DNA from: Chloroflexota bacterium | GTDB lineage: Bacteria; Chloroflexota; UBA11872; VXOZ01 | Assembly: GCA_963663275.1 (NCBI GenBank) | Contig: OY760183.1 | Location: 2,816,001 to 2,880,000 of the forward strand | DNA length: 64,000 nt | Direction of reading: 5' to 3' | Part shown: positions 37,556 through 50,370 of the stretch, in pieces | How positions within the stretch are numbered: the stretch's first letter is position 1 | Layout: every line of letters starts with the position of its first letter | Position numbers and translations under genes: made by a program | Notes under the pieces: model-generated | The model's input: the letters and a program-made list of their open reading frames with translations, nothing else | What the model was told of the DNA's origin: nothing | Databases searched by the model: none

Positions 37556-37665
37556 GCCTTTGACTGTTGTTCCAGGCTGGACAACGCGGGCGGCGGGCAG
37601 CGCGCTTCACCGCTCGCGGGCACACCATGAGCGTCAATCACACCACAGGGAGGAATGCGCGAGCA

Positions 37666-40359
37666 ATGGCGAAAGAAGCGGTTGCGACTCAGGGAGCAGA
37701 GACCGGGCACAAATGGGTGTACCGCTTTGAAGAGGGCGACGCCACCATGCGCGACCTGCTGGGCGGCAAGGGCGCGAATTGCGCCGAGATGATGCGCGCC
37801 GGCCTGCCGGCCCCGCCGGGTTTCACCATCACCACGGCGGCCTGCAACGCCTTCTACGAGTCCGACGAGCAGTTTCCGATTGGCATGTGGGACCAGGCGC
37901 TGGCGGCCCTCGCCGATCTGGAAGCAAAGTCCGGCAAGCGGCTGGGGGACGCCGCTAGTCCGCTGCTGGTCTCGGTGCGTTCCGGCGCTAAGTTCAGCAT
38001 GCCCGGCATGATGGACACTATCCTCAATCTGGGCCTCAACGACGAGACGATCCAGGGCGTGATCGCGCAGACGGGCAACGAACGCTTTGCCTGGGATTCT
38101 TTCCGCCGCTTTGTGCAAATGTACGGCAACGTGGTGCTGGAGGTCGAGAAAGACCATTTCGAGCACGCCTTGGACGCCATCAAGGAAGAGGCGGGCATCG
38201 AGCAAGACGTAGACCTGACCGTCGCGCATCTCCAGGCCGCCGTGGGACGCTTCCAGGAGATTATCGCCCACGAGACCGACGCGGTCTTCCCCACTGAGCC
38301 TGTAGACCAACTGCGCGGCGCGATCGAGGCGGTCTTTGCCTCCTGGAACAACCGCCGCGCCATCGACTACCGCAACTTCCATAGGATTCCCCATTCTCTG
38401 GGCACCGCCGTGAACGTGCAGACGATGGTCTTCGGCAACATGGGCAGCGATTCCGGCACCGGCGTGGCCTTCACGCGCAATCCCTCCACCGGAGAACCGG
38501 CGCTCTTTGGCGAGTTCCTGGAAAACGCCCAGGGCGAGGACGTGGTGGCCGGCGTGCGCACGCCCCTGCCGATTGCCAAGCTGCAAGAAGTGTGGCCGGA
38601 CATCTATGAGGAGTTCGCGGCCATTGCCCAGCGGCTCGAGACCCACTACCGCGAGATGCAGGACATGGAGTTCACCATCGAACGCGGCACACTCTACATG
38701 CTCCAGACGCGCACGGGCAAGCGCACCGCCAGCGCCGCCGTGCGCATCGCGGTGGACATGTTCAACGAGGGCCTGATCAGCAAGGAAGAGGCGATTGCCC
38801 GGGTGGAGCCGGAGCAAATCGACCAACTCCTGCACCCGCGCATCGACCCGGAGGCCGAGGCGCAGGTCATCGCCAAGGGTCTCAACGCCTCGCCGGGGGC
38901 GGCGGTAGGCATGGCCTACTTCGACCCGGACGAGGCCGAGGCGGTGGCGCGCCAGGGCGCGAACGTGATTCTGGTGCGGCCTGAGACCAGCCCCGACGAC
39001 GTGCACGGCATGATTGCCTCCCAAGGCATCCTGACCGCCCGCGGCGGCGCCACGAGCCACGCGGCGGTAGTGGCGCGCGGCCTGGGCAAGCCCTGCGTCG
39101 CCGGCTGCGACGAAATTCGCATCGACATGGAACACGAACGCTTCACGGCCGGCGACGTGACCATTGAAAAGCGCGACTTCATCTCGCTCAACGGCAGCAC
39201 GGGCGAGGTGATCCTGGGAGAGGTGCCTCTAATCCAACCCGAAATCACGGCGGAGATGAGCGAGTTGCTCCGCTGGGCGGACGGCGTGCGCCGCCTGGAA
39301 GTCTGGGCCAATGCCGACTACCCCCGGGACGCCGCCCTGGCGCGCGAGTACGGCGCGCAAGGCATCGGCCTCTGCCGCACGGAGCACATGTTCTTCGAGG
39401 AAGAGCGGCTGCCCATCGTGCAGCAGATGATCCTGGCCAGCAGTTCCGGCGAGCGCCAGGCGGCCCTGGACAAACTCCTGCCCATCCAGCGCGACGACTT
39501 CAAGGGCATCTTGAGCGCCATGGACGGCTTGCCGGTGGTCATCCGCCTGCTCGACCCGCCGCTCCACGAGTTCTTGCCGGACTACGCCGAATTGTTGGAG
39601 GAAGTGGCCACGCTGCGCGCCACCGGCCAGGACCCGCAGCGGCTGGCGGAACGGCAGGGGCTCCTGGAGAGTGTCGCGTCGCTGCGGGAGGCGAATCCCA
39701 TGCTTGGCTTGCGCGGCTGCCGGCTGGGCCTGGAATACCCCGCCATCTACGAAATGCAGGTGCGCGCCATCCTGGAGGCGGCGCTGGCGGTGCAGGAAGA
39801 TGGCGGCAATCCCCATCCCGAAATCATGATCCCCCTCGTCAGCCACGCGAACGAACTGGGCGTGCTGCAAGAGCAACTCGAACGCACGGCGCAACAGGTG
39901 GCGGCGGAACGCGGGGCCGGCGTGGCCTACAAGTTCGGCACCATGATCGAGGTGCCCCGCGCTGCCCTCACTGCCGCGGAGATAGCGGAGCACGCCGAGT
40001 TTTTCAGCTTCGGCACCAACGACCTAACCCAGACCACCTACGGGTATTCCCGTGACGACGCCGAAGGCAAGTTCCTCCTGAACTACGTGGAGAACGCCAT
40101 TCTGCCGGAGAACCCGTTCCAGGTGCTCGACCGGGACGGCGTGGGCCGCCTGGTTTCGATCGCGGTGGCGGAAGGCAAGCGGACCCGCCCCGACCTGGAA
40201 GTCGGCATCTGCGGCGAGCACGGGGGCGACCCGGACTCGATCCACTTCTGCCACGGCGCGGGCTTGGACTACGTTTCGTGCTCGCCGTACCGGGTGCCGG
40301 TGGCGCGCCTCGCCGCGGCCCAGGTGACGCTGGCCGCGGCCGGGCCCCGTGATAGATAG
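37666..40359 (+). CDS. ppdK: Pyruvate, phosphate dikinase
   Basis: LGGKGAN, SMPGMMDT, GGATSHAAVVAR, GIGLCRTEHMF, FSFGTNDL and GICGEHGG motifs. Confidence 0.97.
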   Translation: MAKEAVATQGAETGHKWVYRFEEGDATMRDLLGGKGANCAEMMRAGLPAPPGFTITTAACNAFYESDEQFPIGMWDQALAALADLEAKSGKRLGDAASPLLVSVRSGAKFSMPGMMDTILNLGLNDETIQGVIAQTGNERFAWDSFRRFVQMYGNVVLEVEKDHFEHALDAIKEEAGIEQDVDLTVAHLQAAVGRFQEIIAHETDAVFPTEPVDQLRGAIEAVFASWNNRRAIDYRNFHRIPHSLGTAVNVQTMVFGNMGSDSGTGVAFTRNPSTGEPALFGEFLENAQGEDVVAGVRTPLPIAKLQEVWPDIYEEFAAIAQRLETHYREMQDMEFTIERGTLYMLQTRTGKRTASAAVRIAVDMFNEGLISKEEAIARVEPEQIDQLLHPRIDPEAEAQVIAKGLNASPGAAVGMAYFDPDEAEAVARQGANVILVRPETSPDDVHGMIASQGILTARGGATSHAAVVARGLGKPCVAGCDEIRIDMEHERFTAGDVTIEKRDFISLNGSTGEVILGEVPLIQPEITAEMSELLRWADGVRRLEVWANADYPRDAALAREYGAQGIGLCRTEHMFFEEERLPIVQQMILASSSGERQAALDKLLPIQRDDFKGILSAMDGLPVVIRLLDPPLHEFLPDYAELLEEVATLRATGQDPQRLAERQGLLESVASLREANPMLGLRGCRLGLEYPAIYEMQVRAILEAALAVQEDGGNPHPEIMIPLVSHANELGVLQEQLERTAQQVAAERGAGVAYKFGTMIEVPRAALTAAEIAEHAEFFSFGTNDLTQTTYGYSRDDAEGKFLLNYVENAILPENPFQVLDRDGVGRLVSIAVAEGKRTRPDLEVGICGEHGGDPDSIHFCHGAGLDYVSCSPYRVPVARLAAAQVTLAAAGPRDR

Positions 40360-40404
40360 CACGCTCGCGCGCGTCCACGCGCGGCATTCCCCTAGGAGGT
40401 CAAC

Positions 40405-41007
40405 GTGACATCGAGGACAGACGCGGATTCCGTCGCAGACGCGGACCCCGTTGCAGAGGCAGAACTCCTGCGGGCGCTGGAGGAGCAACCGGAGGAGTGG
40501 GGCCAGGTGCGCATCAGCGTGCCCCCGGACACCGGCAAGTTTCTCCACGTCCTGGTGCGCATGGCCAGACCGAAGCGCATTCTGGAAATCGGCATGTTTC
40601 ACGGGTACTCGACGCTCTGGATCGGGCTGGCCGCCCGGTCGGTCGGCGCGCGCATCACCACCCTGGAACTGGAAGCCGAGAAGGTTGCCGTGGCGCAAGC
40701 TAACTTTGCCAAGGCCGGTTTGGCGGACATCATTACCGTCATCCAAGGCGACGGCAAGCAGACGTTGGCTGGGCTGCCCGGCCCATACGACCTGGTCTTT
40801 CTCGACGCGGCCAAGGAAGATTACGCGGCCTACTTCGATCTCATCTACCCGCGGTTGGCGCCCGGCGGCGTCATCGTAGCCGATAACGCGGTCTCCCACG
40901 GGGAGTACATGGCGGACTACTTCGACAAGGCGCGCAACCACTCCAACTGCGTGAGCGTGCTAGTCCCGGTCGGCACCGGCGAAGAGGTGACCTACAAGAA
41001 GGGTTGA
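40405..41007 (+). CDS. Class I SAM-dependent O-methyltransferase
   Basis: ILEIG-x-x-x-GYSTLW, DLVFLDAAK and GGVIVADN motifs. Confidence 0.9.
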   Translation: MTSRTDADSVADADPVAEAELLRALEEQPEEWGQVRISVPPDTGKFLHVLVRMARPKRILEIGMFHGYSTLWIGLAARSVGARITTLELEAEKVAVAQANFAKAGLADIITVIQGDGKQTLAGLPGPYDLVFLDAAKEDYAAYFDLIYPRLAPGGVIVADNAVSHGEYMADYFDKARNHSNCVSVLVPVGTGEEVTYKKG

Positions 41008-41010
41008 GCG

Positions 41011-41682
41011 GTGGGCGGGCGTGACGAATCGGAGAAATCCCTCACACTGCGGCGGATGCGCCTGGCATCCTCGTTGCGGCGCAAGGGAGTCAGCGACCCG
41101 CGCGTGCTCAACGCCATCGGCGAAGTCCCGCGCGAGCAGTTCGTAGACCAGGGGCTGCGCGACGAGGCCTACCGCGACAGCCCGTTGCCCATTGGCAAAG
41201 GCCAGACGATTTCGCAGCCCTACGTGGTGGCGCTCATGACCGAGGCGCTTGCCTTGACCGGCGCTGAGCGCGTGCTCGAAGTCGGCACCGGCTCAGGCTA
41301 CCAGACGGCAATCCTGTGCGCCCTGGCGCAATTCGTGGTGTCGATTGAACGTTTCGCCGGTCTCGCCCAGGCGGCGCGGGACCGCCTGCGCGCCCTGGGA
41401 CATGGAAACTTTGCCGTGCACGTCGCCGACGGCACCCAGGGATGGCCGGACGAAGCGCCCTACGACGCCATCGTCGTGGCGGCGGCGGCGCCCCGGCTGC
41501 CGGAGCCGCTTCTCGCCCAGCTTGCGGCGGGCGGGCGTTGCGTGATCCCCGTGGGCGATCGGCACAGCCAGGCGCTCCTCTGCGTTGAGCACCACGGCGA
41601 ACGGGCGCCGCAACGCAATCTGGGGTGCGTGCGCTTCGTGCCGCTGGTGGGCGCGCACGGCTGGTCGGACGAAGGGGAGTAG
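41011..41682 (+). CDS. pcm: Protein-L-isoaspartate O-methyltransferase
   Basis: GQTISQP, VLEVGTGSGYQ, APYDAI and VRFVPL motifs. Confidence 0.95.
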   Translation: MGGRDESEKSLTLRRMRLASSLRRKGVSDPRVLNAIGEVPREQFVDQGLRDEAYRDSPLPIGKGQTISQPYVVALMTEALALTGAERVLEVGTGSGYQTAILCALAQFVVSIERFAGLAQAARDRLRALGHGNFAVHVADGTQGWPDEAPYDAIVVAAAAPRLPEPLLAQLAAGGRCVIPVGDRHSQALLCVEHHGERAPQRNLGCVRFVPLVGAHGWSDEGE

Positions 41683-41829
41683 GGCCGTTCCGCACATGAT
41701 GAGGATGCATTAATGGCGGATGCGTTAGTATAGGACGTACGGACGGGACCCGTTCGCATTGAGTCCGCAAGTCTGCGGGCGCCTGACGGCAGCGACGGTA
41801 GGCCCGCCCAGCACTCATCGAACAAGAGG

Positions 41830-42714
41830 ATGCAGATGGAAGAGAGAGTCGCCGCTTTCCTGGACCACATTACCGAGCAGCGTGACCTATCGGCGAACAC
41901 GCGGGCGGCGTATCGAAACGACTTGTCCCAATTGACCCGTTTTCTCCAGGCCAGGGGCATGGACGACTGGCACGGGGATGCCGCGTGGGTGGAGGCGTAC
42001 AGCCAGGATCTCATGGAACGCGGCTACAGCGCCGCCACCCGGGCGCGCAAAGTTGCCGCCGTGCGCTCGTTCTACCGCTACCTTTCCGATGAAGGGGTCG
42101 TGGCCGAGGATCCGACGCAGGATCTGGCCGGCGGGCGCGTCGAGCGCGCCCCGCCCACGGTGCTCAGCCACGAGCAAGTCGCCGCTCTCTTTGCGGCGGC
42201 CCGGGAGCGCTCATCGCCGGAAGCCCTGCGCGACCAGAGCATCTTGAGCCTCTTGTACGCGACCGGCCTGCGCATTACCGAGGCGCTGGGCCTCGACCTG
42301 GACGACATCGACCGAGAGCAGCGGCGCCTTATCGTGCGCGGGCGCAAGCGCCAGGCGGAAGCGCCCCTGGACGAGGCGTGCCTGGACGCGCTCGACCGCT
42401 ACGTCACGCAGAGCCGCCCCCGGTTGCGTACTTCCCAGTCCGGCCAGGCGCTCTATCTCAACCATCGGGGGCAGCGCCTCACCCGCCAGGGTTTCTGGCT
42501 GGCGCTCAAGCGTTTTGCGCGGGCGGCGAACTTGCCCGAGGTCACCCCGCAGACGTTGCGCCATACCTTTGCCGCGCACGCCCTGGAAGGCCAAGCGCCG
42601 CTCGAGCGCGTGCGCTCGATGCTGGGCCACAGCAACGTGAGTTCGACCCGGCGCTACACCCAGCTTACGGATGACGGCGCGGGAACCGAATCGAGCGCAG
42701 GAAACGCCAAATAG
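41830..42714 (+). CDS. XerC/XerD-like tyrosine recombinase
   Basis: NT-x-x-AY-x-x-DL, LYATGLRITE, LTRQGFW, TPQTLRH and LGH...Y motifs. Confidence 0.85.
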   Translation: MQMEERVAAFLDHITEQRDLSANTRAAYRNDLSQLTRFLQARGMDDWHGDAAWVEAYSQDLMERGYSAATRARKVAAVRSFYRYLSDEGVVAEDPTQDLAGGRVERAPPTVLSHEQVAALFAAARERSSPEALRDQSILSLLYATGLRITEALGLDLDDIDREQRRLIVRGRKRQAEAPLDEACLDALDRYVTQSRPRLRTSQSGQALYLNHRGQRLTRQGFWLALKRFARAANLPEVTPQTLRHTFAAHALEGQAPLERVRSMLGHSNVSSTRRYTQLTDDGAGTESSAGNAK

Positions 42715-42725
42715 AAAGAACGTCG

Positions 42726-44729
42726 ATGCAGACCGTCCGCCGCCACCTATCCGCTCTACTCGTTTCGCTCCTTCTGCTGGCAGCGCTGCTCAGCGCCGCC
42801 TGCGGACAAAACGGTACGGAGCGCGAGACGCTCTACTCCGCGAGCGACGGCCCCGCCGGGATAGAAGCGTCAGGCCGGTTCAAGCCGCTGGCATCCCAGG
42901 AGGCGGCGGAAGAGACGCTCCAGCGGCTGCTGGCAACCGACAAGCCCGAACGCGACCTCTTCGACATCGGCAGACGCTACAAGGGCCTGACGGACGACGT
43001 CCCGCGCGTGGTGAACGCCGCGCGGCCCGACTACCCGCTGGAAACGGTGCAAACCTTCTGGCTTGCCGACGACGCCAACGGCACGTACTACCCGATCAAC
43101 GCGGTGCTGCTGGGGAAATCGGCGCACCTCTACATGTACGTCGAGGAAGGACTGGACGTGCCCCAGGCCGGGATCGACAAGACGCTCCGCGTCTTCGAGG
43201 CAACCATCTACCCCACAATCAGATGGTACTTCGGCGCGGAGCGGGAGCCAGGGATTGACAACGATCCTCGGATTACGGTGCTCAACGCGCATATCCCCGG
43301 CGTGGGCGGCTATTACTCCTCCGCGGACGGGTATCCAAGCGCGGTCAATCCCTACAGCAATGAACGGGAGATGTTCTACATCAACATTGGCGGCCGCGGC
43401 TACGGTCCCGGCACGGACAACTATCTGTCTACGCTCTGCCACGAGTTCCAGCACATGGTGCACTGGAACCAGAACCCGACCCAGGAGACCTGGCTCAACG
43501 AAGGCGCCGCCGTGGTCGCGTCGCGGCTCTGCGGCTACGGCGTCGGCGGGCTGGTCAATTGGTTCGCGGAGAACGCCGACGTGCAACTAACCTCCTGGAG
43601 CGACGATTCGAGCGCCGCCATACCGCATTACGCGGCGGCCTACCTCTTCACGGAGTACTTCGCCCAGCACTACGGCGGCCACGAGAAGCTGAAGGACTTG
43701 ATTGCCCTGCCGCTGCGCGGCCAGGCGTCCATCGACGCGTTCCTGGCGCAAGAGGGCTATGACGTGACGTTCTACGACGTGTTTGCGGATTGGACGGCGG
43801 CAAACTACGTTGACGATGGACGCCCGGACGACGGCGCTTATACCTACAACGTGCGCCTTCCCAACATGCGCTCCCAGCAAGTGGTGCGCAATGAGACCTT
43901 CGACAGCGACCTGACGGTCAACCAGTTTGGCACGCAGTACGTGGATCTGCGCCTGCCGCAAGGGGACTATACGCTGGAGTTCGAAGGCGCGCCGCAGGTG
44001 CGGCTCTTCGCCACCACCGCCCCCAGCGGCGCAAACGTGTGGTGGAGCAATCGCTCCGACATGGCGAGCACGTCGCTCACAGGCGCGTTCGACCTGCGCA
44101 ACGCGTCGGCCCCGGCGCTGCGGTTCCGCACGTGGTACGACATCGAACCGGACTTCGACTACGCCTACGTGGCGGTTTCGATTGACGGCGGCGAGACCTG
44201 GACGACGCTGCCGGGCGCCACCACCACCACTGAGGACCCGAACGGCAACAACCTCGGCCACGGCTTTACCGGCGCCAGCGGCGGCGGTGAGCGCCCCGAG
44301 TGGATCGAAGAAGAGATCGACCTTGCCGAGTACGCTGGCAAGCAGATACTGCTCCGCCTCGAGTACGTCACCGACGACGCGGTCAACGGCGTCGGCTTTC
44401 TGGTGGACGACCTTTCCATCAGCGAGATCGGCTTTAGCGACGACGCCGAGACCGACGGCGCGTGGGAAGCGCGGGGCTTCTTCCGCACGGACGGCATTCT
44501 GCCGCAGTACTTCATCGTCCAACTGGTGCGCTACGCGGACGGCCTGCCGGCGGTGGAACGCGCCATGCTCATCGGACGGGATGAGGTGGGTGTTTCGTTC
44601 TCCCTGGCCGGCTTTGGGGAAGAGGTGCAGCGCGCCGCGCTCATCGTCAGCGGCGCGACGCCGGTCACCACTGAGGACGCGCGCTTCAACGTGCGCCTCG
44701 CTCCGGTTGCCGGCGGCGACAGCGAATAG
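42726..44729 (+). CDS. Lipoprotein Zn-metalloprotease (M30/M6 immune-inhibitor-A-like)
   Basis: LSAAC lipobox, SNEREMFY, HEFQHMVH, WLNEG, and a C-terminal WYDIE-x-x-FDYAYV / YVTDDA domain. Confidence 0.85.
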   Translation: MQTVRRHLSALLVSLLLLAALLSAACGQNGTERETLYSASDGPAGIEASGRFKPLASQEAAEETLQRLLATDKPERDLFDIGRRYKGLTDDVPRVVNAARPDYPLETVQTFWLADDANGTYYPINAVLLGKSAHLYMYVEEGLDVPQAGIDKTLRVFEATIYPTIRWYFGAEREPGIDNDPRITVLNAHIPGVGGYYSSADGYPSAVNPYSNEREMFYINIGGRGYGPGTDNYLSTLCHEFQHMVHWNQNPTQETWLNEGAAVVASRLCGYGVGGLVNWFAENADVQLTSWSDDSSAAIPHYAAAYLFTEYFAQHYGGHEKLKDLIALPLRGQASIDAFLAQEGYDVTFYDVFADWTAANYVDDGRPDDGAYTYNVRLPNMRSQQVVRNETFDSDLTVNQFGTQYVDLRLPQGDYTLEFEGAPQVRLFATTAPSGANVWWSNRSDMASTSLTGAFDLRNASAPALRFRTWYDIEPDFDYAYVAVSIDGGETWTTLPGATTTTEDPNGNNLGHGFTGASGGGERPEWIEEEIDLAEYAGKQILLRLEYVTDDAVNGVGFLVDDLSISEIGFSDDAETDGAWEARGFFRTDGILPQYFIVQLVRYADGLPAVERAMLIGRDEVGVSFSLAGFGEEVQRAALIVSGATPVTTEDARFNVRLAPVAGGDSE

Positions 44730-44776
44730 CCGCGTTCCCCGCCTAGCCGTCTGCGCCCTCTCGGAAGAAGCGAATG

Positions 44777-46756
44777 CTATTCCCCACCAGCTAACTCCTG
44801 GCGGCGTTGGACGTAGTCCTGCACCGCCAGCAGGAATTCGGCGTGGCTCCACGTGTACGGCGTTACCGAGAGCGGCGCGTGGGTGTAGGGGTGGACCTGC
44901 TCGGCAAACATGCCGGTAGCCACCGCGTGTCGGCGCGCCCATTGCAGCAGTTCCCCGGCCGGCTTCAGGTCCGCCAGAGTCCGCGCCCGTGCCACGTGCC
45001 AGCGGCAGAGCCACATAGTCGTCACCACCCAGGGATTGCCGGGCACGTTGCCCACGTCCGTGCTGACCTGGTGGAAGCGGTCGTTCTCGAAGCGGGCCAG
45101 GCCGCCGACTTCCGTATGGCACCACAGTTGCTGGCGCACGGCCGCCATGGTGCGTTCCATGCGCTCGTCCCCGGCCGGTACCATGCCAAAGAGGCCGACA
45201 CCGGCGATGCTGGCGTCCAGCGTGAGGTCCGGCACCGGCTCGCGGTTGCCGTAGAGGCGCAGGCGCGTGACGTAGCGCCCGGTTTCCGCATCGTAGAAGA
45301 GCGCGGCGAACGCCCGGCGGATTTGCTCCGCGGCCTCCCGCGCGGCCTCCGTCAGTTCCGGCTGGCCGAAGGCCGCCGTAAACGTGCACGCGGCCCGCAG
45401 CCCGGCCCACGTGGCCGCCAGCGTGTAGGCGTGCAACCCGTAGGTCTCTTCCCACAGATCGAAGGAAGGCAGCGGCAAGCCGGTCTCCGGTTCGCGATGG
45501 CTGAGGAGGAAGTCCAGCGCCGGTTGCACCAGGTCGGCGTAGAGCGAGCGCACGAAGTCGAAGTCCCGGTCCAGGCCGAAGTGCTCGCCCAGCGCCCAGA
45601 GCAGCGTCGCCGTATTGTCGGCGGCCACCGGCAGCGTTTCTTTGCCGTCCGGCGCCACCCACGCGTGATCCAAGCTGCCCACCGCGCCAAACGAGGTGTA
45701 CTTGGAAAAGAGGTAGCCGTCGGCGGTAGGCAGTTGGCGGCAGAACTCGAAGAAGTGGCGCGTGAGGTCCGTAAAGCCCGCCCGGTCCAGCGCCACCCCG
45801 GCCAGCGCCCCCACCCGCGGCAACAGATAGCTGTACGTGTCCCCCGTGCGGCGGGCAACGTCGGGATCGCTGCCGGCCATGATCGCCCCGGTGCTGTCCA
45901 CCTGCGTCCGCAGCGTGAGCAGGCTCCGGTGGTAGAGGTCCCAGATTTCTTGCGGAATGTCCGGCTTGGGCGTGCGGTGCTTGCGCACCCAGAACGACCA
46001 GTACTCCTGCGTGCGGTGGATGAAGCTATCCGGCGTGCGGAAGCGAATCAAGCGGTTGTCGTCCAGCACGGCGTCCAGGCCGGTATTGGCCGCTAGCCAG
46101 TGGTAGCCGGTGCGGGTCTCTCCCGCCGGCACGCGGCCCAGCGCCAACATGCCCACGCAGTCCACGTCGCCCCGCGAAACGGCGTTTTGCGAAAGCCAGC
46201 CGTCTTCGGCGTCCTGCCACGACCCCCGCGCGCCCTCGGCCGTGTAGACGCCCGTTGCCCAGTCCTGGATGCCGGGCTTGTCGCCGGCCATGACGTTCAT
46301 CAGAAAGAAGCGCTGCCCCTTGTAGGCAATCAGCGACTGCGTGGGCGGATGGTAGAATACCGTGTCGCCAATGTCCGGGCCCCAAAGTTCCCACTCGTAC
46401 TGGAAGTAGAGGCGAATCTCGCGGGCGTCGTCCGTCGTGTTCTTTACGTCAAGTTGCCGCAGCAGGAAGTCGCGCACGAAGTCCAGGCAGTCCGTAAACT
46501 CGATTTCGATGCCCAACCGCCGGTGGACGGCCCTGGCGCGGGAAACCAGAGAGTAGTCGCGATAGCCGGGCGTGATCTCCCAGGCCGGATCGCCCAGCCA
46601 GGAGAATTGGTCGTCCACCCAGACGCCGACGCGGGAAGGCCGCGCCGCCAGGTGATTGTCGGCGCCGACGTTCGGATAGTAGAGATCCCGAATGCGGTAG
46701 CGCTCATCGAAGTTGACGAGCATGCTGCCGTTGCCAATGGTAAGCGCGCGCGGCAC
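44777..46756 (-). CDS. Glycoside hydrolase family 15 (glucoamylase-like)
   Basis: IGNG-x-MLVN, DLYYP-x-VG, DLWEE, GGLARFEND, AEQVHP and TWSHAEF motifs. Confidence 0.88.
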   Translation of the reverse strand: MPRALTIGNGSMLVNFDERYRIRDLYYPNVGADNHLAARPSRVGVWVDDQFSWLGDPAWEITPGYRDYSLVSRARAVHRRLGIEIEFTDCLDFVRDFLLRQLDVKNTTDDAREIRLYFQYEWELWGPDIGDTVFYHPPTQSLIAYKGQRFFLMNVMAGDKPGIQDWATGVYTAEGARGSWQDAEDGWLSQNAVSRGDVDCVGMLALGRVPAGETRTGYHWLAANTGLDAVLDDNRLIRFRTPDSFIHRTQEYWSFWVRKHRTPKPDIPQEIWDLYHRSLLTLRTQVDSTGAIMAGSDPDVARRTGDTYSYLLPRVGALAGVALDRAGFTDLTRHFFEFCRQLPTADGYLFSKYTSFGAVGSLDHAWVAPDGKETLPVAADNTATLLWALGEHFGLDRDFDFVRSLYADLVQPALDFLLSHREPETGLPLPSFDLWEETYGLHAYTLAATWAGLRAACTFTAAFGQPELTEAAREAAEQIRRAFAALFYDAETGRYVTRLRLYGNREPVPDLTLDASIAGVGLFGMVPAGDERMERTMAAVRQQLWCHTEVGGLARFENDRFHQVSTDVGNVPGNPWVVTTMWLCRWHVARARTLADLKPAGELLQWARRHAVATGMFAEQVHPYTHAPLSVTPYTWSHAEFLLAVQDYVQRRQELAGGE

Positions 46757-46844
46757 AGTGCTCCCTCCTCAAGTCGTGGTGCGCCACTCGCTCTACTATA
46801 GCAGTCTTGCGCGCGCTGGGGACGGGGGCCAAGACGGCCGCTTC

Positions 46845-46879
46845 CCCGTTGGTCCTGAGCACGTCGAAGGGTGAACGGC
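46845..46879. repeat. REP-like hairpin (CTGAGC..GTCGAAG family)
   Basis: CCGTTGGTCCTGAGCACGTCGAAGGGTGAACGG. Confidence 0.7.
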
Positions 46880-46980
46880 TGCTCCGCGCGCAGTCTGCGC
46901 TCATGCTCCGGCCTGAGTTACTCCTGCGAACTCAAACCAGGAAATTGGAGGCGGTTTTCTTTCAGCTTCTCTAATAACGA

Positions 46981-47008
46981 TTGACTACCCAAGCCGGTGT
47001 GTTATCCT
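46981..47008 (+). promoter_or_regulatory. Sigma70-type promoter for the CxxC gene cluster
   Basis: TTGACT-16 bp-TATCCT with extended TG; AT-rich upstream. Confidence 0.6.
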
Positions 47009-47153
47009 AACTGTGGAAGTTGGCGGCACCGGCGCGACCGGTGGGTATTTCCTCGACACATAGGGGTGTTGAAAGGCCACCAAGGGCGCGTCTCACGCTG
47101 CCAACGAGAATGAACTTGCGCGAAGTGTTGATGATTTCCGCAGGAAGGCGGCG

Positions 47154-47657
47154 ATGCCGGTTCATCGACCCACTACGTTACCGGTAGTCGGCACGGCCAG
47201 GGGATTGCTTGCGCATCCGGACATACCGGCCTTTCCGCTGGAGGCGTTCCGCGCCGCCCACCCTTCCGGCCAACTGCGGTGCGGGAGTTGCGGTGAATTG
47301 GTGCGGCACGACCCGTGCTCGGTCGTGGAATCATTGTTAGAGCACATGCCGGCGGCAGCGAAGCGCCTCTGGGGGCCTGAGACACCCATTGCGGTGAGTC
47401 TCGCCCACGACTTCTACCCATACCAGCCGCACGCCGCGACTCCGGACTGCGGTGGCGAGCCACCGGCCACGTTGCACGTGCTTGTGTATGAAGACGGCGC
47501 ACGGGAGAAGTGGCTCAGCAACGACGACGGGCAATGCGAGCGCTACTATGGCATCGTCTACCGCAACGCGGCGTCTCTGTCGATGCCGCTAGGACGTGCC
47601 CCCGCGCCCGTATTCCGTGAAGTCTGGTATCCCACCGGCGACTTTCGCGAACTCTGA
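47154..47657 (+). CDS. Hypothetical CxxC protein, long form A
   Basis: Paralogous to 48284..48781 (PSGQ-x-RCGSCGEL, WGP, DDG, YGIV-x-R, REVWYPTG); AGGAAGG upstream. Confidence 0.82.
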   Translation: MPVHRPTTLPVVGTARGLLAHPDIPAFPLEAFRAAHPSGQLRCGSCGELVRHDPCSVVESLLEHMPAAAKRLWGPETPIAVSLAHDFYPYQPHAATPDCGGEPPATLHVLVYEDGAREKWLSNDDGQCERYYGIVYRNAASLSMPLGRAPAPVFREVWYPTGDFREL

Positions 47658-47753
47658 CGCCCTACCGGCGGCTTACGGGAGAACCTGCACCCTACCGGAG
47701 GCATTCGCGAGGGCGTGTAACTTGGAAGCGAACTCCAATCCGTTTTGCCTGAG

Positions 47754-47893
47754 GAGACCCTTGCAAGAGTCCGTCATTCCGGTGAAAGCCGGAATCCAGG
47801 GTACCTTTACACTACCATCAACATGAAGTCAAGCCAATTCACCTTAATGCCAAACCTTGGCCCTTGATTGGGAAGGGGTTACGCAGAGGTCTC
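47754..47893. mobile_element. MITE-like element with GAGACC...GGTCTC ends
   Basis: Inverted ends GAGACCCTTGCAAG / GGTTACGCAGAGGTCTC; internal CGTCATTCCGGTGAAAGCCGGAAT hairpin. Confidence 0.6.
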
Positions 47894-47937
47894 CCCAGGC
47901 AGATGGCTAGAACGAAGGTTGACCGTGGAGGTCGGCA

Positions 47938-48246
47938 ATGCCGGCGCATGAGATCATCGTCACGCGTATTCCCCAGGAACGCGGGGAGGAACCGGCGGCG
48001 GGCGTAGCTCAACCGCAGACCGTAGGGGACTACCGCGCCCGCTACGGTAACCGCATAGTGTGCCGTACCTGCCGAGAGGAAATCAGCGTCAGCGGCTTGG
48101 AGCAGGTGTGGGAAGCGTACGGTCCTGACGCCGTAATCGATATTTCCCACCGGGGCTTGCGCCTGCCCGGCGATCCGGTCGATCTGCCGCTCGCGCCGGG
48201 CTGGCAGCCTCAGCCGCGCCGGCCCGCCGCCGCGTCCGACGAGTAA
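47938..48246 (+). CDS. Hypothetical CxxC protein, short form B
   Basis: Paralogous to 49330..49620 (MP-x-HEIIV-x-RIP, TV-x-x-YRA, CxxC, A(Y/W)GP, PG(D/E)P); GGAGG RBS. Confidence 0.8.
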   Translation: MPAHEIIVTRIPQERGEEPAAGVAQPQTVGDYRARYGNRIVCRTCREEISVSGLEQVWEAYGPDAVIDISHRGLRLPGDPVDLPLAPGWQPQPRRPAAASDE

Positions 48247-48283
48247 CGCCCGAAAAGAGAACGGCAGCACAGGGAGGGCAGCA

Positions 48284-48781
48284 ATGCCACCACGGCAACA
48301 GCCAATCCATCGAACCCTCACGGGACTGGCCGTTTCCGAGCACGAGGGCCAGCCCGTGCATCTCCACATCCCGGCCTACACGGTGGCCGAGTTCCGCCGC
48401 GCCTATCCTTCAGGTCAGGTGCGCTGCGGCAGTTGCGGCGAACTGCTGGACTATCAGCGCGGCTTCGAACTAACGGAGGAGCGGTGGGGGCCGGATACGG
48501 TCATGACGTTCGCGCTCTCGCACGAGTACTTCCCGGCTGACTTCCTTGAGCAGGACTCCACGCCGGCCGCGGCAGGCCAGGCCCTTGGGCAATGCCCGGT
48601 GCTCTATTCCGATGACATCCGCGAGGAGTACGCCCGGCGCGACGACGGTCGCGACGAATGGCTCTACGGCATCGTGTTCCGCGACGCGCGCGCGCCGGAG
48701 CGCGTGTACCGTGAGGTCTGGTACCCCACCGGCGTGTTTCGTTCCCCTCTCCCCGATGAGACCTTTGCAAAACCTCGCTGA
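48284..48781 (+). CDS. Hypothetical CxxC protein, long form A'
   Basis: Paralogue of 47154..47657; GGGAGG RBS; last codons overlap a MITE end. Confidence 0.82.
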   Translation: MPPRQQPIHRTLTGLAVSEHEGQPVHLHIPAYTVAEFRRAYPSGQVRCGSCGELLDYQRGFELTEERWGPDTVMTFALSHEYFPADFLEQDSTPAAAGQALGQCPVLYSDDIREEYARRDDGRDEWLYGIVFRDARAPERVYREVWYPTGVFRSPLPDETFAKPR

Positions 48782-49094
48782 GAGGCGAACAGTTCCCTCT
48801 CCTGGGGGAGAGGGTTAGGGTGAGGGGAGATTGTGCGGCAAGTCGTGCCTATATCTTGCGGAATGGGGGCCGAACCGACGAGGATTCCCCCTCAACGGAC
48901 AGGGGTAGGCATTCTACATTCGACTTCACGTGTCATTCCGAGCGGAGCGCAGCGGAGAGAGGAATCTAAGGTTTTCGCTGCAAAAACGTCGGTTCTAGAT
49001 TCCTCGCTCCGCTCGGAATGACACTTGCCTACCCCTGTCAGCCCCAGGGAGAGGGAGTCTCAATGCGCGCCGACCGTGGTTACGTAAAGGTCTC
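48758..49094. mobile_element. MITE-like element with nested inner element
   Basis: Ends GAGACCTTTGCAAAACC / GGTTACGTAAAGGTCTC; inner inverted repeat GACAGGGGTAGGCA (48898) / TGCCTACCCCTGTC (to 49039) encloses REP doublet 48931-49023. Confidence 0.7.
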
Positions 49095-49101
49095 CGAGGG
49101 C

Positions 49102-49310
49102 TGACAGGGGCATTTGGCTGACTAGGGCACATAGACGAGAATCGAGTTCACCTGTCATTCCGAACGGAGCGCAGCGGAGAGAGGAATCTAGAGCGCCGGA
49201 CTTTTCTGACGCCGTGCGGCACGTACACTAGATTCCTCGCTGCGCTCGGAATGACGCTTACATACCCTTTCAGGCCCCGGGGGTTAGGGTGAGGGCGTTT
49301 GTCCCTGTCA
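49102..49310. mobile_element. MITE-like element with TGACAGGG ends enclosing a REP doublet
   Basis: TGACAGGG (49102) ... CCCTGTCA (49303-49310); internal TGTCATTCCG...CGGAATGAC doublet 49153-49255. Confidence 0.6.
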
Positions 49311-49329
49311 AGGAGCAAGGAGTTCGCCA

Positions 49330-49620
49330 ATGCCGCGCCATGAAATCATCGTCGAGCGCATCCCCGATACGTTCCGGGGCAAGCCGGTGCGCCTGCCGCC
49401 GCCTGAGGCATTGCACACCTTCCACCCAGAGACGGTGGCGGCGTACCGCGCGCTCAACCCCGCGCTGCGGCATGAGTGCCCATCATGCGGTACCACCTTC
49501 GATATGAGCAGCCTGGCGCCGGTCCTGGACGCCTGGGGGCCGGAGGCCCGATTCACCGTCTCGCTGAAGTGCCTGTGGGTGCCGGGCGAGCCGCGCCTCG
49601 ACCCGGAGCAAAGACGGTAA
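49330..49620 (+). CDS. Hypothetical CxxC protein, short form B'
   Basis: Paralogue of 47938..48246; AAGGAG RBS. Confidence 0.8.
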   Translation: MPRHEIIVERIPDTFRGKPVRLPPPEALHTFHPETVAAYRALNPALRHECPSCGTTFDMSSLAPVLDAWGPEARFTVSLKCLWVPGEPRLDPEQRR

Positions 49621-49803
49621 CGCACACGCGCCAACCTCAAACGACTCTCCACCGAACGCGGCCCGCCGCGGTGACGGCCTGACGCGCGCGCCGCAATTCA
49701 TGCGCGGGCTGTCTCTCACGCTTGCGGCATGGTACGATGAACGTGTCCGCGACGGCGGCGCTAGAGATCGGCGGCCTCTCCCCCGCGTTCTCAGCAGACG
49801 CCA

Positions 49804-50370
49804 GTGCCCAACTCACGCTCCGCCAGGCGGCCCGCGCCGCCGGAAACGGAAACGCCGGTGAACGCATTCCTCACGCAATTGAAGAGCAAGCGCATCATCT
49901 GGCCGCTCCTCCTGACGGCGCTGATCATCGTCTCCGACCAGGTTACCAAGGCCTTCATCGTGGACTGGCTCAAGCCCCAGGGCAGCGTCTCCATCATTGG
50001 CGACCTGCTGCGGCTCACGTTCGTCACGAACACCGGCGTGGCGTTCGGGATGCTCACCGGAATGCCCTACGTGCTCATGGTGCCCATCGTCATCCTCATT
50101 TGCGTCATCATCTTCTATCTGGTCAAGACGCTCGGCCAGTCGTTCGTGCTCACCTTGGCGCTCACCTTAGAACTTGGCGGCGCGCTGGGCAATCTGATCG
50201 ACCGCATTCGCCTGGGCTACGTGGTCGACTTCGTGAAGTTTCCCTACTGGCCGGCCTTCAACGTCGCCGACAGTTGCGTGGTCGTCGGCGCGATCGGCCT
50301 GGCATTCATCCTCTTCTGGCAAGACCGCCAGGAGACCGCGTCCAAACCGGAATCCCCGCCCGCGCCCTAG
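49804..50370 (+). CDS. lspA: Lipoprotein signal peptidase II
   Basis: DQVTK, NTGVAFG, GGALGNLIDR, VVDF and FNVAD motifs; start may be GTG 49858. Confidence 0.95.
   Translation: MPNSRSARRPAPPETETPVNAFLTQLKSKRIIWPLLLTALIIVSDQVTKAFIVDWLKPQGSVSIIGDLLRLTFVTNTGVAFGMLTGMPYVLMVPIVILICVIIFYLVKTLGQSFVLTLALTLELGGALGNLIDRIRLGYVVDFVKFPYWPAFNVADSCVVVGAIGLAFILFWQDRQETASKPESPPAP

Follow-up and report, generated by a model that had tools for sequence, protein, structure and literature searches.

What are four small genes doing side by side in a bacterial genome when their products resemble one another and no characterised protein? The question is raised by an array in a 64,000-nt stretch of a Chloroflexota genome (contig OY760183.1, positions 2,816,001 to 2,880,000; hereafter the window), in which two long paralogues, A and A', alternate with two short ones, B and B', in the order A-B-A'-B'. 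The best reading of the window is that it holds two diverged tandem copies of a self-contained accessory cassette of two genes. An initial annotation, made from the letters of the window, had placed four co-oriented open reading frames (ORFs) here, and the ORF listing matches it in every coordinate: A (47154..47657, + strand) encodes 167 amino acids (aa), B (47938..48246, +) 102 aa, A' (48284..48781, +) 165 aa and B' (49330..49620, +) 96 aa. All the motifs that it had listed are visible in alignments of the four proteins, a purine-rich stretch does lie ahead of the ATGCC start in all four genes, and the flanking genes agree with its placement of the array between GH15 and lspA. The 3.53-Mb single-contig genome to which the window belongs contains these four copies only.

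The two long proteins are significant paralogues (39% identity, BLASTP E 2e-35), as are the two short ones (38% identity, E 1e-14), so that the duplicated long/short module suspected from the shared motifs is real. Pairwise BLASTP did not connect A with B significantly (E 1.5). By contrast, profiles built from 14 A and 10 B sequences were matched by hhalign with a probability of 98.85% and an E value of 4.1e-17 over 85 columns, residues 1-96 of A aligning with residues 1-92 of B. The order of secondary-structure elements is also the same in the AlphaFold2 models of A and B across their common part, and the C-terminal strands of A have no equivalent in the B model. A and B are homologous and, given this profile-profile match, B is a free-standing copy of the N-terminal domain of A, as had been supposed when it was described as a short form of A without the C-terminal part.

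Three parts can be told apart in A from the alignments and the AlphaFold2 model: a predicted zinc-knuckle alpha/beta domain (about residues 1-90), a poorly conserved loop modelled with low confidence, and a C-terminal beta extension of three strands (about residues 108-167). In this model (mean predicted local distance difference test score (pLDDT) 78.4, predicted template modelling score (pTM) 0.75), a first strand (3-10) is followed by a helix (29-35), a hairpin bearing the CxxC motif (40-42/49-51), helices (54-70) and a strand (78-86), and beyond residue 86 come the low-confidence loop and the strands 111-122, 127-138 and 153-166. The B model (mean pLDDT 73.7, pTM 0.57) shows A-like elements, with the CxxC hairpin at 39-41/48-50, up to a last strand at 66-74, followed by a disordered tail. 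Invariant among the 14 A sequences are R33, P37, G39, C43, G44, C46, G47 and H85 and, further along the chain, E129, G133, R137, P150, R155, W158, P160, T161 and F164; His4 is conserved in at least 90% of them. Among 45 B sequences, C42 and C45 never vary and H4 is kept in at least 90%; a His or Cys stands 9-11 residues past the glycine of the WGP motif in each of the displayed B rows that span this part (22 of the 23 shown).

These residues suggest how the CxxC could be used. Each chain has one conserved CxxC knuckle, located in a beta hairpin of the models, and no second CxxC or CxxH is conserved; the candidate third and fourth ligands are single residues lying far apart in sequence. The probable zinc ligands are His4, the two cysteines of the knuckle and the His or Cys on the last shared strand. 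They would make one Cys2-His-(His/Cys) zinc site per chain, linking the knuckle with the beginning of strand one and with the end of the last strand that A and B have in common. The initial annotation had considered that a metal site would need either a partner chain or His ligands. A partner chain is not required: A has His4 and His85, and B has His4 and the His or Cys past the WGP motif. Because a conserved His or His/Cys accompanies the CxxC in each chain, an intrachain Cys2His2-type site is at least as likely as a shared one. A CPxC(G/D)-type knuckle in a beta hairpin recalls the small zinc-ribbon and zinc-knuckle proteins (such as Pfam Zn_Ribbon_TF and Zn_ribbon_5), from which A and B differ by having a single knuckle, the other candidate ligands being a His close to the N-terminus and, on a distant strand, a His or Cys.

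The same motif could instead be a redox-active dithiol/disulfide switch, which would make the pair a thiol-based redox sensor or oxidoreductase; a single invariant CxxC per chain fits such a role, as does the CGSC form found in A, which resembles thioredoxin-type motifs. However, the CxxC lies in a short beta-hairpin in both models, not at the N-terminus of a helix, and the CPxC(G/D) and CGSCG forms are typical of zinc knuckles. Moreover, the only hidden Markov model (HMM) matches, all of them sub-threshold, are to zinc-ribbon and zinc-finger families, the conserved His or His/Cys positions could be the third and fourth ligands, and neither Foldseek nor VIA-align gave a thioredoxin-fold match. 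We therefore consider a redox function distinctly unlikely. Other assignments were rejected as well: a catalytic N-terminal proline is not conserved (some copies begin with MLKH or MARH), a classical C2H2 finger would have a His pair in a helix that is not conserved here, and an R-S-E ADP-ribosyltransferase has neither fold nor HMM support.

Are A and B members of a known family? No characterised family, fold or system matches them, and they are new both as a protein family and as a module. Searches of Pfam, NCBIfam, PADLOC and PHROGs with the four proteins returned only sub-threshold matches of zinc-ribbon type at the CxxC, with scores of at most 15 bits against family cut-offs of 27-29, and when all members were scanned against Pfam no family occurred in more than 3 of the 45 B sequences or 2 of the 14 A sequences. 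A sequence-profile search of the PDB gave no match at E < 0.01 for A or B, its top row, a SnoaL-like protein (E 0.027), being taken as noise, and the top score in the ESM Atlas (0.76) was under the lead level of the tool. The initial annotation, which had recognised no family, is thus borne out in Pfam, NCBIfam, PADLOC, PHROGs, the PDB, BFVD and the ESM Atlas, none of which yielded a confident match to a characterised family.

Comparisons of the models led to the same result. Foldseek returned no row at E <= 0.001 from the PDB for either model, nor from BFVD for the A model. The wide VIA-align search gave for A a top Z of 3.9 (UTRA domains, root-mean-square deviation 3.8 Å over 81 residues) and for B a top Z of 2.3, and the PDB-wide VIA search gave for A a top Z of 2.2 (PAS and hot-dog rows), all of them below the usual unrelated range of a tool for which a Z under 8 may mean only a common arrangement. 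In general layout, five antiparallel strands in one sheet and helices placed behind strand one, the A model does recall PAS-like and UTRA (GntR-HutC effector-binding) small-molecule-binding domains, but, beyond these low Z values, there is no sequence similarity and the PAS and UTRA folds have no zinc knuckle. The fold searches thus show no known relative, which does not prove a new fold.

The family is as narrow in distribution as it is isolated in sequence. A single-sequence search with A among 5.8 billion proteins found 3 relatives, and the A profile retrieved 11 proteins at E <= 0.001 from 1.84 billion cluster representatives, one of which (P0012) was set aside as an unrelated repetitive protein. 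The B profile recovered 45 clusters from the 5.8 billion proteins, none of them with a Pfam domain. In their source annotation the family members are a 'hypothetical protein' or left blank. A pattern scan of one genome per species for 185,579 species yielded 12 loci, all in records of Chloroflexota metagenome-assembled genomes, and in an even sample of the phylum (401 genomes, 217 genera) matches occurred solely in the genus of the window. A weak match in another genus (L013, E 0.003) falls in a non-coding frame of a larger gene and was not recovered by the profile. No relative was found in viral contigs, and the A profile had no match in JGI metagenome contigs, where the sole locus retrieved by the B profile (L043) is a chance WGPDAVI motif within a 455-aa ORF of another family. 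A full-text literature search by peptide motifs did not find the family, which has no name to search by, and nothing on it appeared in the available portions of the results on Chloroflexota, sponges, toxin-antitoxin systems and symbionts. The cassette is found in just one genus of uncultured Chloroflexota.

Within this genus, A and B form an obligate, strictly linked and co-evolving pair. Profile searches of 17 genomes gave 15 strong A and 15 strong B matches, and each of the 15 A genes is followed immediately by a B gene on its own strand, with A invariably the first of the two and zero orphans; the linkage of A and B noticed in the window holds throughout the genus, in 15 cases out of 15. 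The same nine genomes hold both genes, the other eight hold neither, and a species may carry from 0 to 3 copies of the cassette. One relative (G007) has another tandem A-B-A-B array. In 8 of the 12 pairs examined, a GGAGG sequence and the ATG of B are located inside the last codons of A, mostly with an overlap of 11 nt, which is the classic layout of translational coupling in these relatives; in the remaining four (both window pairs, L006 and L010) inserted repeat sequence has broken up the junction. Pairs of A proteins and the corresponding pairs of partner B proteins are correlated in identity (r 0.87, a value that none of 5000 Mantel permutations reached), which indicates that the pair is the unit of duplication and divergence. 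B diverges faster than A in the same pairs (A/B identities of 86/69, 82/67 and 82/65%). Two natural fusions, P0003 (286 aa) and P0062 (345 aa), join A to B through different linkers.

Could these be spurious or decaying lineage-specific ORFs without function? The taxonomic range is very narrow, both A-B junctions of the window have been invaded by repeats, and 2 of the 15 B copies are disrupted. One of these, in relative G004, is split after about residue 26 by an insertion sequence (IS; DDE_Tnp_1 transposase, L018:6763-7728, - strand), while the ORF of the adjacent A is still open, with changes at two conserved positions; the other, in relative G006, carries a single-base frameshift that could be a sequencing error, since it falls within a run of A residues. 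Selection gives the answer. Ratios of nonsynonymous to synonymous substitution rates (dN/dS), calculated by the Nei-Gojobori method (NG86) on unsaturated orthologue pairs from related genomes, were 0.16-0.27 for A in five of six close pairs (dS 0.31-0.63) and 0.33-0.53 for B (dS 0.43-0.58), well below 1 in both cases; the sixth close A pair, at 0.55, includes the locus whose B is destroyed. When this decaying pair is excluded, both domains of A appear constrained (N-domain 0.08-0.40, C-domain 0.15-0.28). The paralogue pairs within the window are saturated (dS about 1.2) and their dN/dS consequently says little. A and B are real genes under purifying selection, and the idea of functionless ORFs is already contradicted by this selection and by the conservation of the family: residues remain invariant across copies of only 35-60% identity, gene order and overlap are conserved, and the models are confident and mutually consistent. 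We regard it as extremely unlikely.

There is firm evidence that the two-gene cassette is new, self-contained and restricted to the genus, and that its products work together. It is an accessory element, present in some species and absent from others within a narrow taxonomic range, and it occupies five differing housekeeping contexts: between GH15 and lspA in the window and, in other cases, past the glycine-cleavage genes gcvT-H-P1-P2 and ahead of tgt, downstream of four solute-binding-protein genes, among GFO/IDH/MocA oxidoreductases, and between a CrtC-like gene and mgsA. The last of these sites is empty in the genome of the window, with about 17 bp between two stop codons, and filled in relative G004 by a 2.1-kb insert holding A-B. 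Other selfish elements lie next to it, namely an IS transposase (context II) and a GIY-YIG ORF (context I). Every cassette clade keeps to a single context, and old duplications followed by vertical descent and loss therefore fit at least as well as recent hopping.

The cassette also seems to bring its own promoter. A sigma-70-type site (46981..47008, + strand), composed of TTGACT, a spacer of 16 nt and TATCCT, with TG before the second hexamer, lies 146 nt ahead of A. No other promoter-like site was found between 46700 and 49900, and this one is likely the promoter of the whole array. TTGAC occurs within 200 nt upstream of 11 of 12 A genes, compared with 12.7% of random 200-nt windows of the genome. 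The sole exception is A', which starts 37 nt past B without an upstream TTGAC of its own and is thus presumably co-transcribed. The upstream regions of A have a GC content of 0.47-0.58, against 0.59-0.74 in the window.

The roles suggested in the initial annotation, metal or redox sensing, defence and a toxin-antitoxin-like function, are guesses, and PADLOC yielded nothing. Small overlapping co-oriented genes with their own promoter-like site, a copy number from 0 to 3, presence/absence polymorphism in five unrelated contexts between housekeeping genes and selfish elements next door (the IS transposase and the GIY-YIG ORF) are traits of type II toxin-antitoxin operons, which include reverse-order types such as higBA, mqsRA and hicAB. 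The pair could then be an addiction module made of a growth-inhibiting effector and a proteic antidote, most likely with A, via its conserved C-terminal sheet, as the effector and B as the antidote; B evolves the faster of the two, and antitoxins often diverge faster than their toxins. Several observations speak against it. Neither protein matches any toxin, antitoxin or defence family in Pfam, NCBIfam, PADLOC or PHROGs, although a new toxin fold is conceivable, and HMM searches detected no recognisable toxin or DNA-binding domain (HTH, RHH, AbrB or Phd/YefM) in A or B. Both partners are acidic (isoelectric point 4.9-6.9 in 23 of 24 proteins), whereas the usual pairing is of an acidic with a basic protein, and a toxin and antitoxin that are mutual paralogues would be atypical. 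Toxin-antitoxin families usually spread widely, but this family is restricted to a single genus. Finally, the ORF of A has remained open in G004 beside its IS-interrupted B, although that A is altered at two conserved positions. In its population behaviour the cassette comes closest to a conflict or addiction-type module; a toxin-antitoxin system proper we nevertheless consider unlikely.

The small size and acidity of both proteins, together with the accessory nature of the cassette and its proximity to mobile elements, would also suit an acidic decoy or anti-defence pair (immunity-like or a DNA mimic) left by a mobile element or prophage and acting on a protein of the host or of a competitor. 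The best rows for the B model were to an anti-CRISPR, at non-significant values (Foldseek E 0.45, VIA Z 2.0). But these structural rows are at noise level, no relative rises above noise in viral contigs, BFVD or PHROGs, and the flanks consist of housekeeping genes, not of prophage or toxin genes, which makes this origin very unlikely.

How, then, might the two products work together? Each cassette supplies two acidic cytoplasmic proteins built on a common alpha/beta domain of about 85 residues with no recognisable fold, running from a strand through a helix, the CxxC beta-hairpin knuckle and a further helix to a last strand, to which A adds three long beta strands that extend the sheet and bear the most conserved residues of the family. 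A and B would pair obligately, most likely as a 1:1 hetero-complex stabilised by zinc, in which B would dock on A by mimicking its N-domain and, once docked, control the conserved C-terminal part of A, as a short-paralogue (microProtein-like) regulator or antidote. We infer zinc binding, the geometry of the complex, the direction of action (B on A) and any cellular role, and taken as a package we place slightly more trust than doubt in this arrangement. It resembles that of microProteins, short single-domain paralogues that regulate a longer relative by heterodimer formation (Id with bHLH, LITTLE ZIPPER with HD-ZIPIII), in that B is just the domain that it has in common with the longer A and the two are always co-encoded and co-evolving. 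The known cases, by contrast, are regulators of eukaryotic transcription factors encoded at separate loci, and A and B form a bacterial bicistronic cassette. The WXG100 proteins EsxA/EsxB offer another parallel, since there too two adjacent genes encode small paralogous proteins, the pair as a whole has been duplicated within a genome and a heterodimer is expected. WXG100 proteins are, however, helical hairpins of about 100 aa with a W-x-G turn, adjoining a type VII secretion system, whereas the A and B models are alpha/beta with a knuckle, their W-G-P lies in a loop before a strand and there are no secretion genes nearby; Pfam WXG100 has no match in A or B.

A prediction of the complex of A with B(1-90) and two zinc ions was consistent with pairing, the verdict of the tool being 'weak support' (median 0.43; runs of 0.43, 0.52 and 0.37), with a best of 0.00 among three controls, a partner pLDDT of at least 59 and runs agreeing in at least 48% of contacts. 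When the tool was calibrated, 58 of 80 solved complexes and 2 of 110 mismatched pairs reached the mark, and scores of 0.60 or less comprise just 7 of the 80 solved complexes plus both passing mismatches. The prediction therefore adds a little to a prior that the fusions and the coupling had already raised.

Several points weigh against the proposed arrangement. According to the calibration, a pass at such a score is usually mistaken unless the guess had been likely beforehand, and the prediction combined shallow self-made alignments with a small molecule, for which the calibration did not provide. The AlphaFold2 models themselves rest on 14 sequences for A and 10 for B. The N-terminal MPxH is not universal, some A proteins starting with MLKH and some B proteins with MARH, and the proximity of His4, the CxxC and His85 is deduced from the order of the strands. 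As for the pairing, the co-variation of A and B comes partly from the shared ancestry of the loci, and P0003 and P0062 could be artefacts of assembly or frameshift, as each is a single sequence on a single metagenome contig. In the window itself, both A-B junctions are split by repeats, so that the coupling is lost and the expression of B and B' uncertain.

The gaps that interrupt the two cassettes are non-native spacers, made of insertions of repeats abundant in the genome. The A-B spacer (47658..47937, 280 bp) was made by insertion and holds one copy of a dispersed repeat (47773-47801), a 29-nt motif for which the two strands of the genome together give 91 matches when up to 3 mismatches are allowed. 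The A'-B' spacer (48782..49329, 548 bp) contains two copies of a palindromic element resembling a miniature inverted-repeat transposable element (MITE) or a repetitive extragenic palindrome (REP), with arms at 48927-48949/49005-49027 and 49154-49171/49238-49255 (repeat families D2, D3, I1 and I7); for the 18-nt arm the corresponding number, with up to 2 mismatches allowed, is 411. The insertion of repeats at the A-B junction in 4 of 12 cassettes suggests that this junction is a preferred target. An HUH transposase or RAYT tied to the palindromic repeats was considered and discarded, there being neither an HUH motif nor a Y1_Tnp match. Rfam gave only two sub-threshold rows in this region, one of them a microRNA model over the palindromic repeat. 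A GC-rich hairpin just past the stop codon of A' (48793-48827, + strand) scored 25.2 bits with the whalefall-1 model (gathering threshold 37, E 0.0014); it is probably just a hairpin, possibly terminator-like.

The flanks of the array in the window have a history of their own. The GH15-family gene (44777-46756, - strand) stands on the side of A, and beyond B' come lspA (49804-50370, Peptidase_A8) and an rluD-like pseudouridine synthase gene. In 15 of 15 relatives from the genus, a homologue of the pyruvate phosphate dikinase gene is directly upstream of lspA and divergent from it. In the window this gene (37567-40359) is 10 kb away from lspA and in the opposite orientation. The arrangement would fit an inversion of about 12 kb (about 37567-49700 in the window) with the A-B-A'-B' array at one end, though an assembly error is possible; neither end of the rearranged segment showed inverted repeats. 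Within this segment lies a gene for a XerC/XerD-like tyrosine recombinase (41830-42714, + strand) with Phage_integrase and N-terminal SAM-like domains, between a PCMT methyltransferase gene and an InhA-like peptidase gene.

Two further ORFs accompany cassette sites in relatives. In the 2.1-kb insert of G004, directly upstream of A-B and in a stretch of low GC, a 132-aa ORF (L024:5507-5905, + strand) combines an N-terminal hydrophobic segment with a Cys/Trp-rich C-terminal part; it has no Pfam match, is present at this locus only and could encode a secreted peptide. The small GIY-YIG ORF (L021:2185-2541, + strand), which has counterparts in L015 and L020, interrupts the glycine-cleavage operon of relatives between gcvH and gcvP1, another sign of selfish genes settling in intergenic gaps of the genomes of this genus.

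What would such a cassette mean? Its practical weight is limited, with one uncultured genus concerned and nothing yet pointing to a cellular role. It is possible, if unlikely, that it represents a new class of bacterial two-gene conflict or regulatory system, in which B, a truncated paralogue of the effector A and its antidote or regulator, would through domain mimicry cap or replace the N-domain of A and keep the conserved C-terminal sheet of A inactive, on an unseen zinc-knuckle alpha/beta fold. If the reading given here is true, the genus would harbour a protein family, and probably a fold, without relative in any library searched, organised as an obligate pair of long and short paralogues that duplicates and diverges as a unit. 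Its zinc site would have a new architecture, with one knuckle and distant His/Cys ligands, and the pair would provide a compact bacterial case of a protein regulated or neutralised by a truncated copy of itself.

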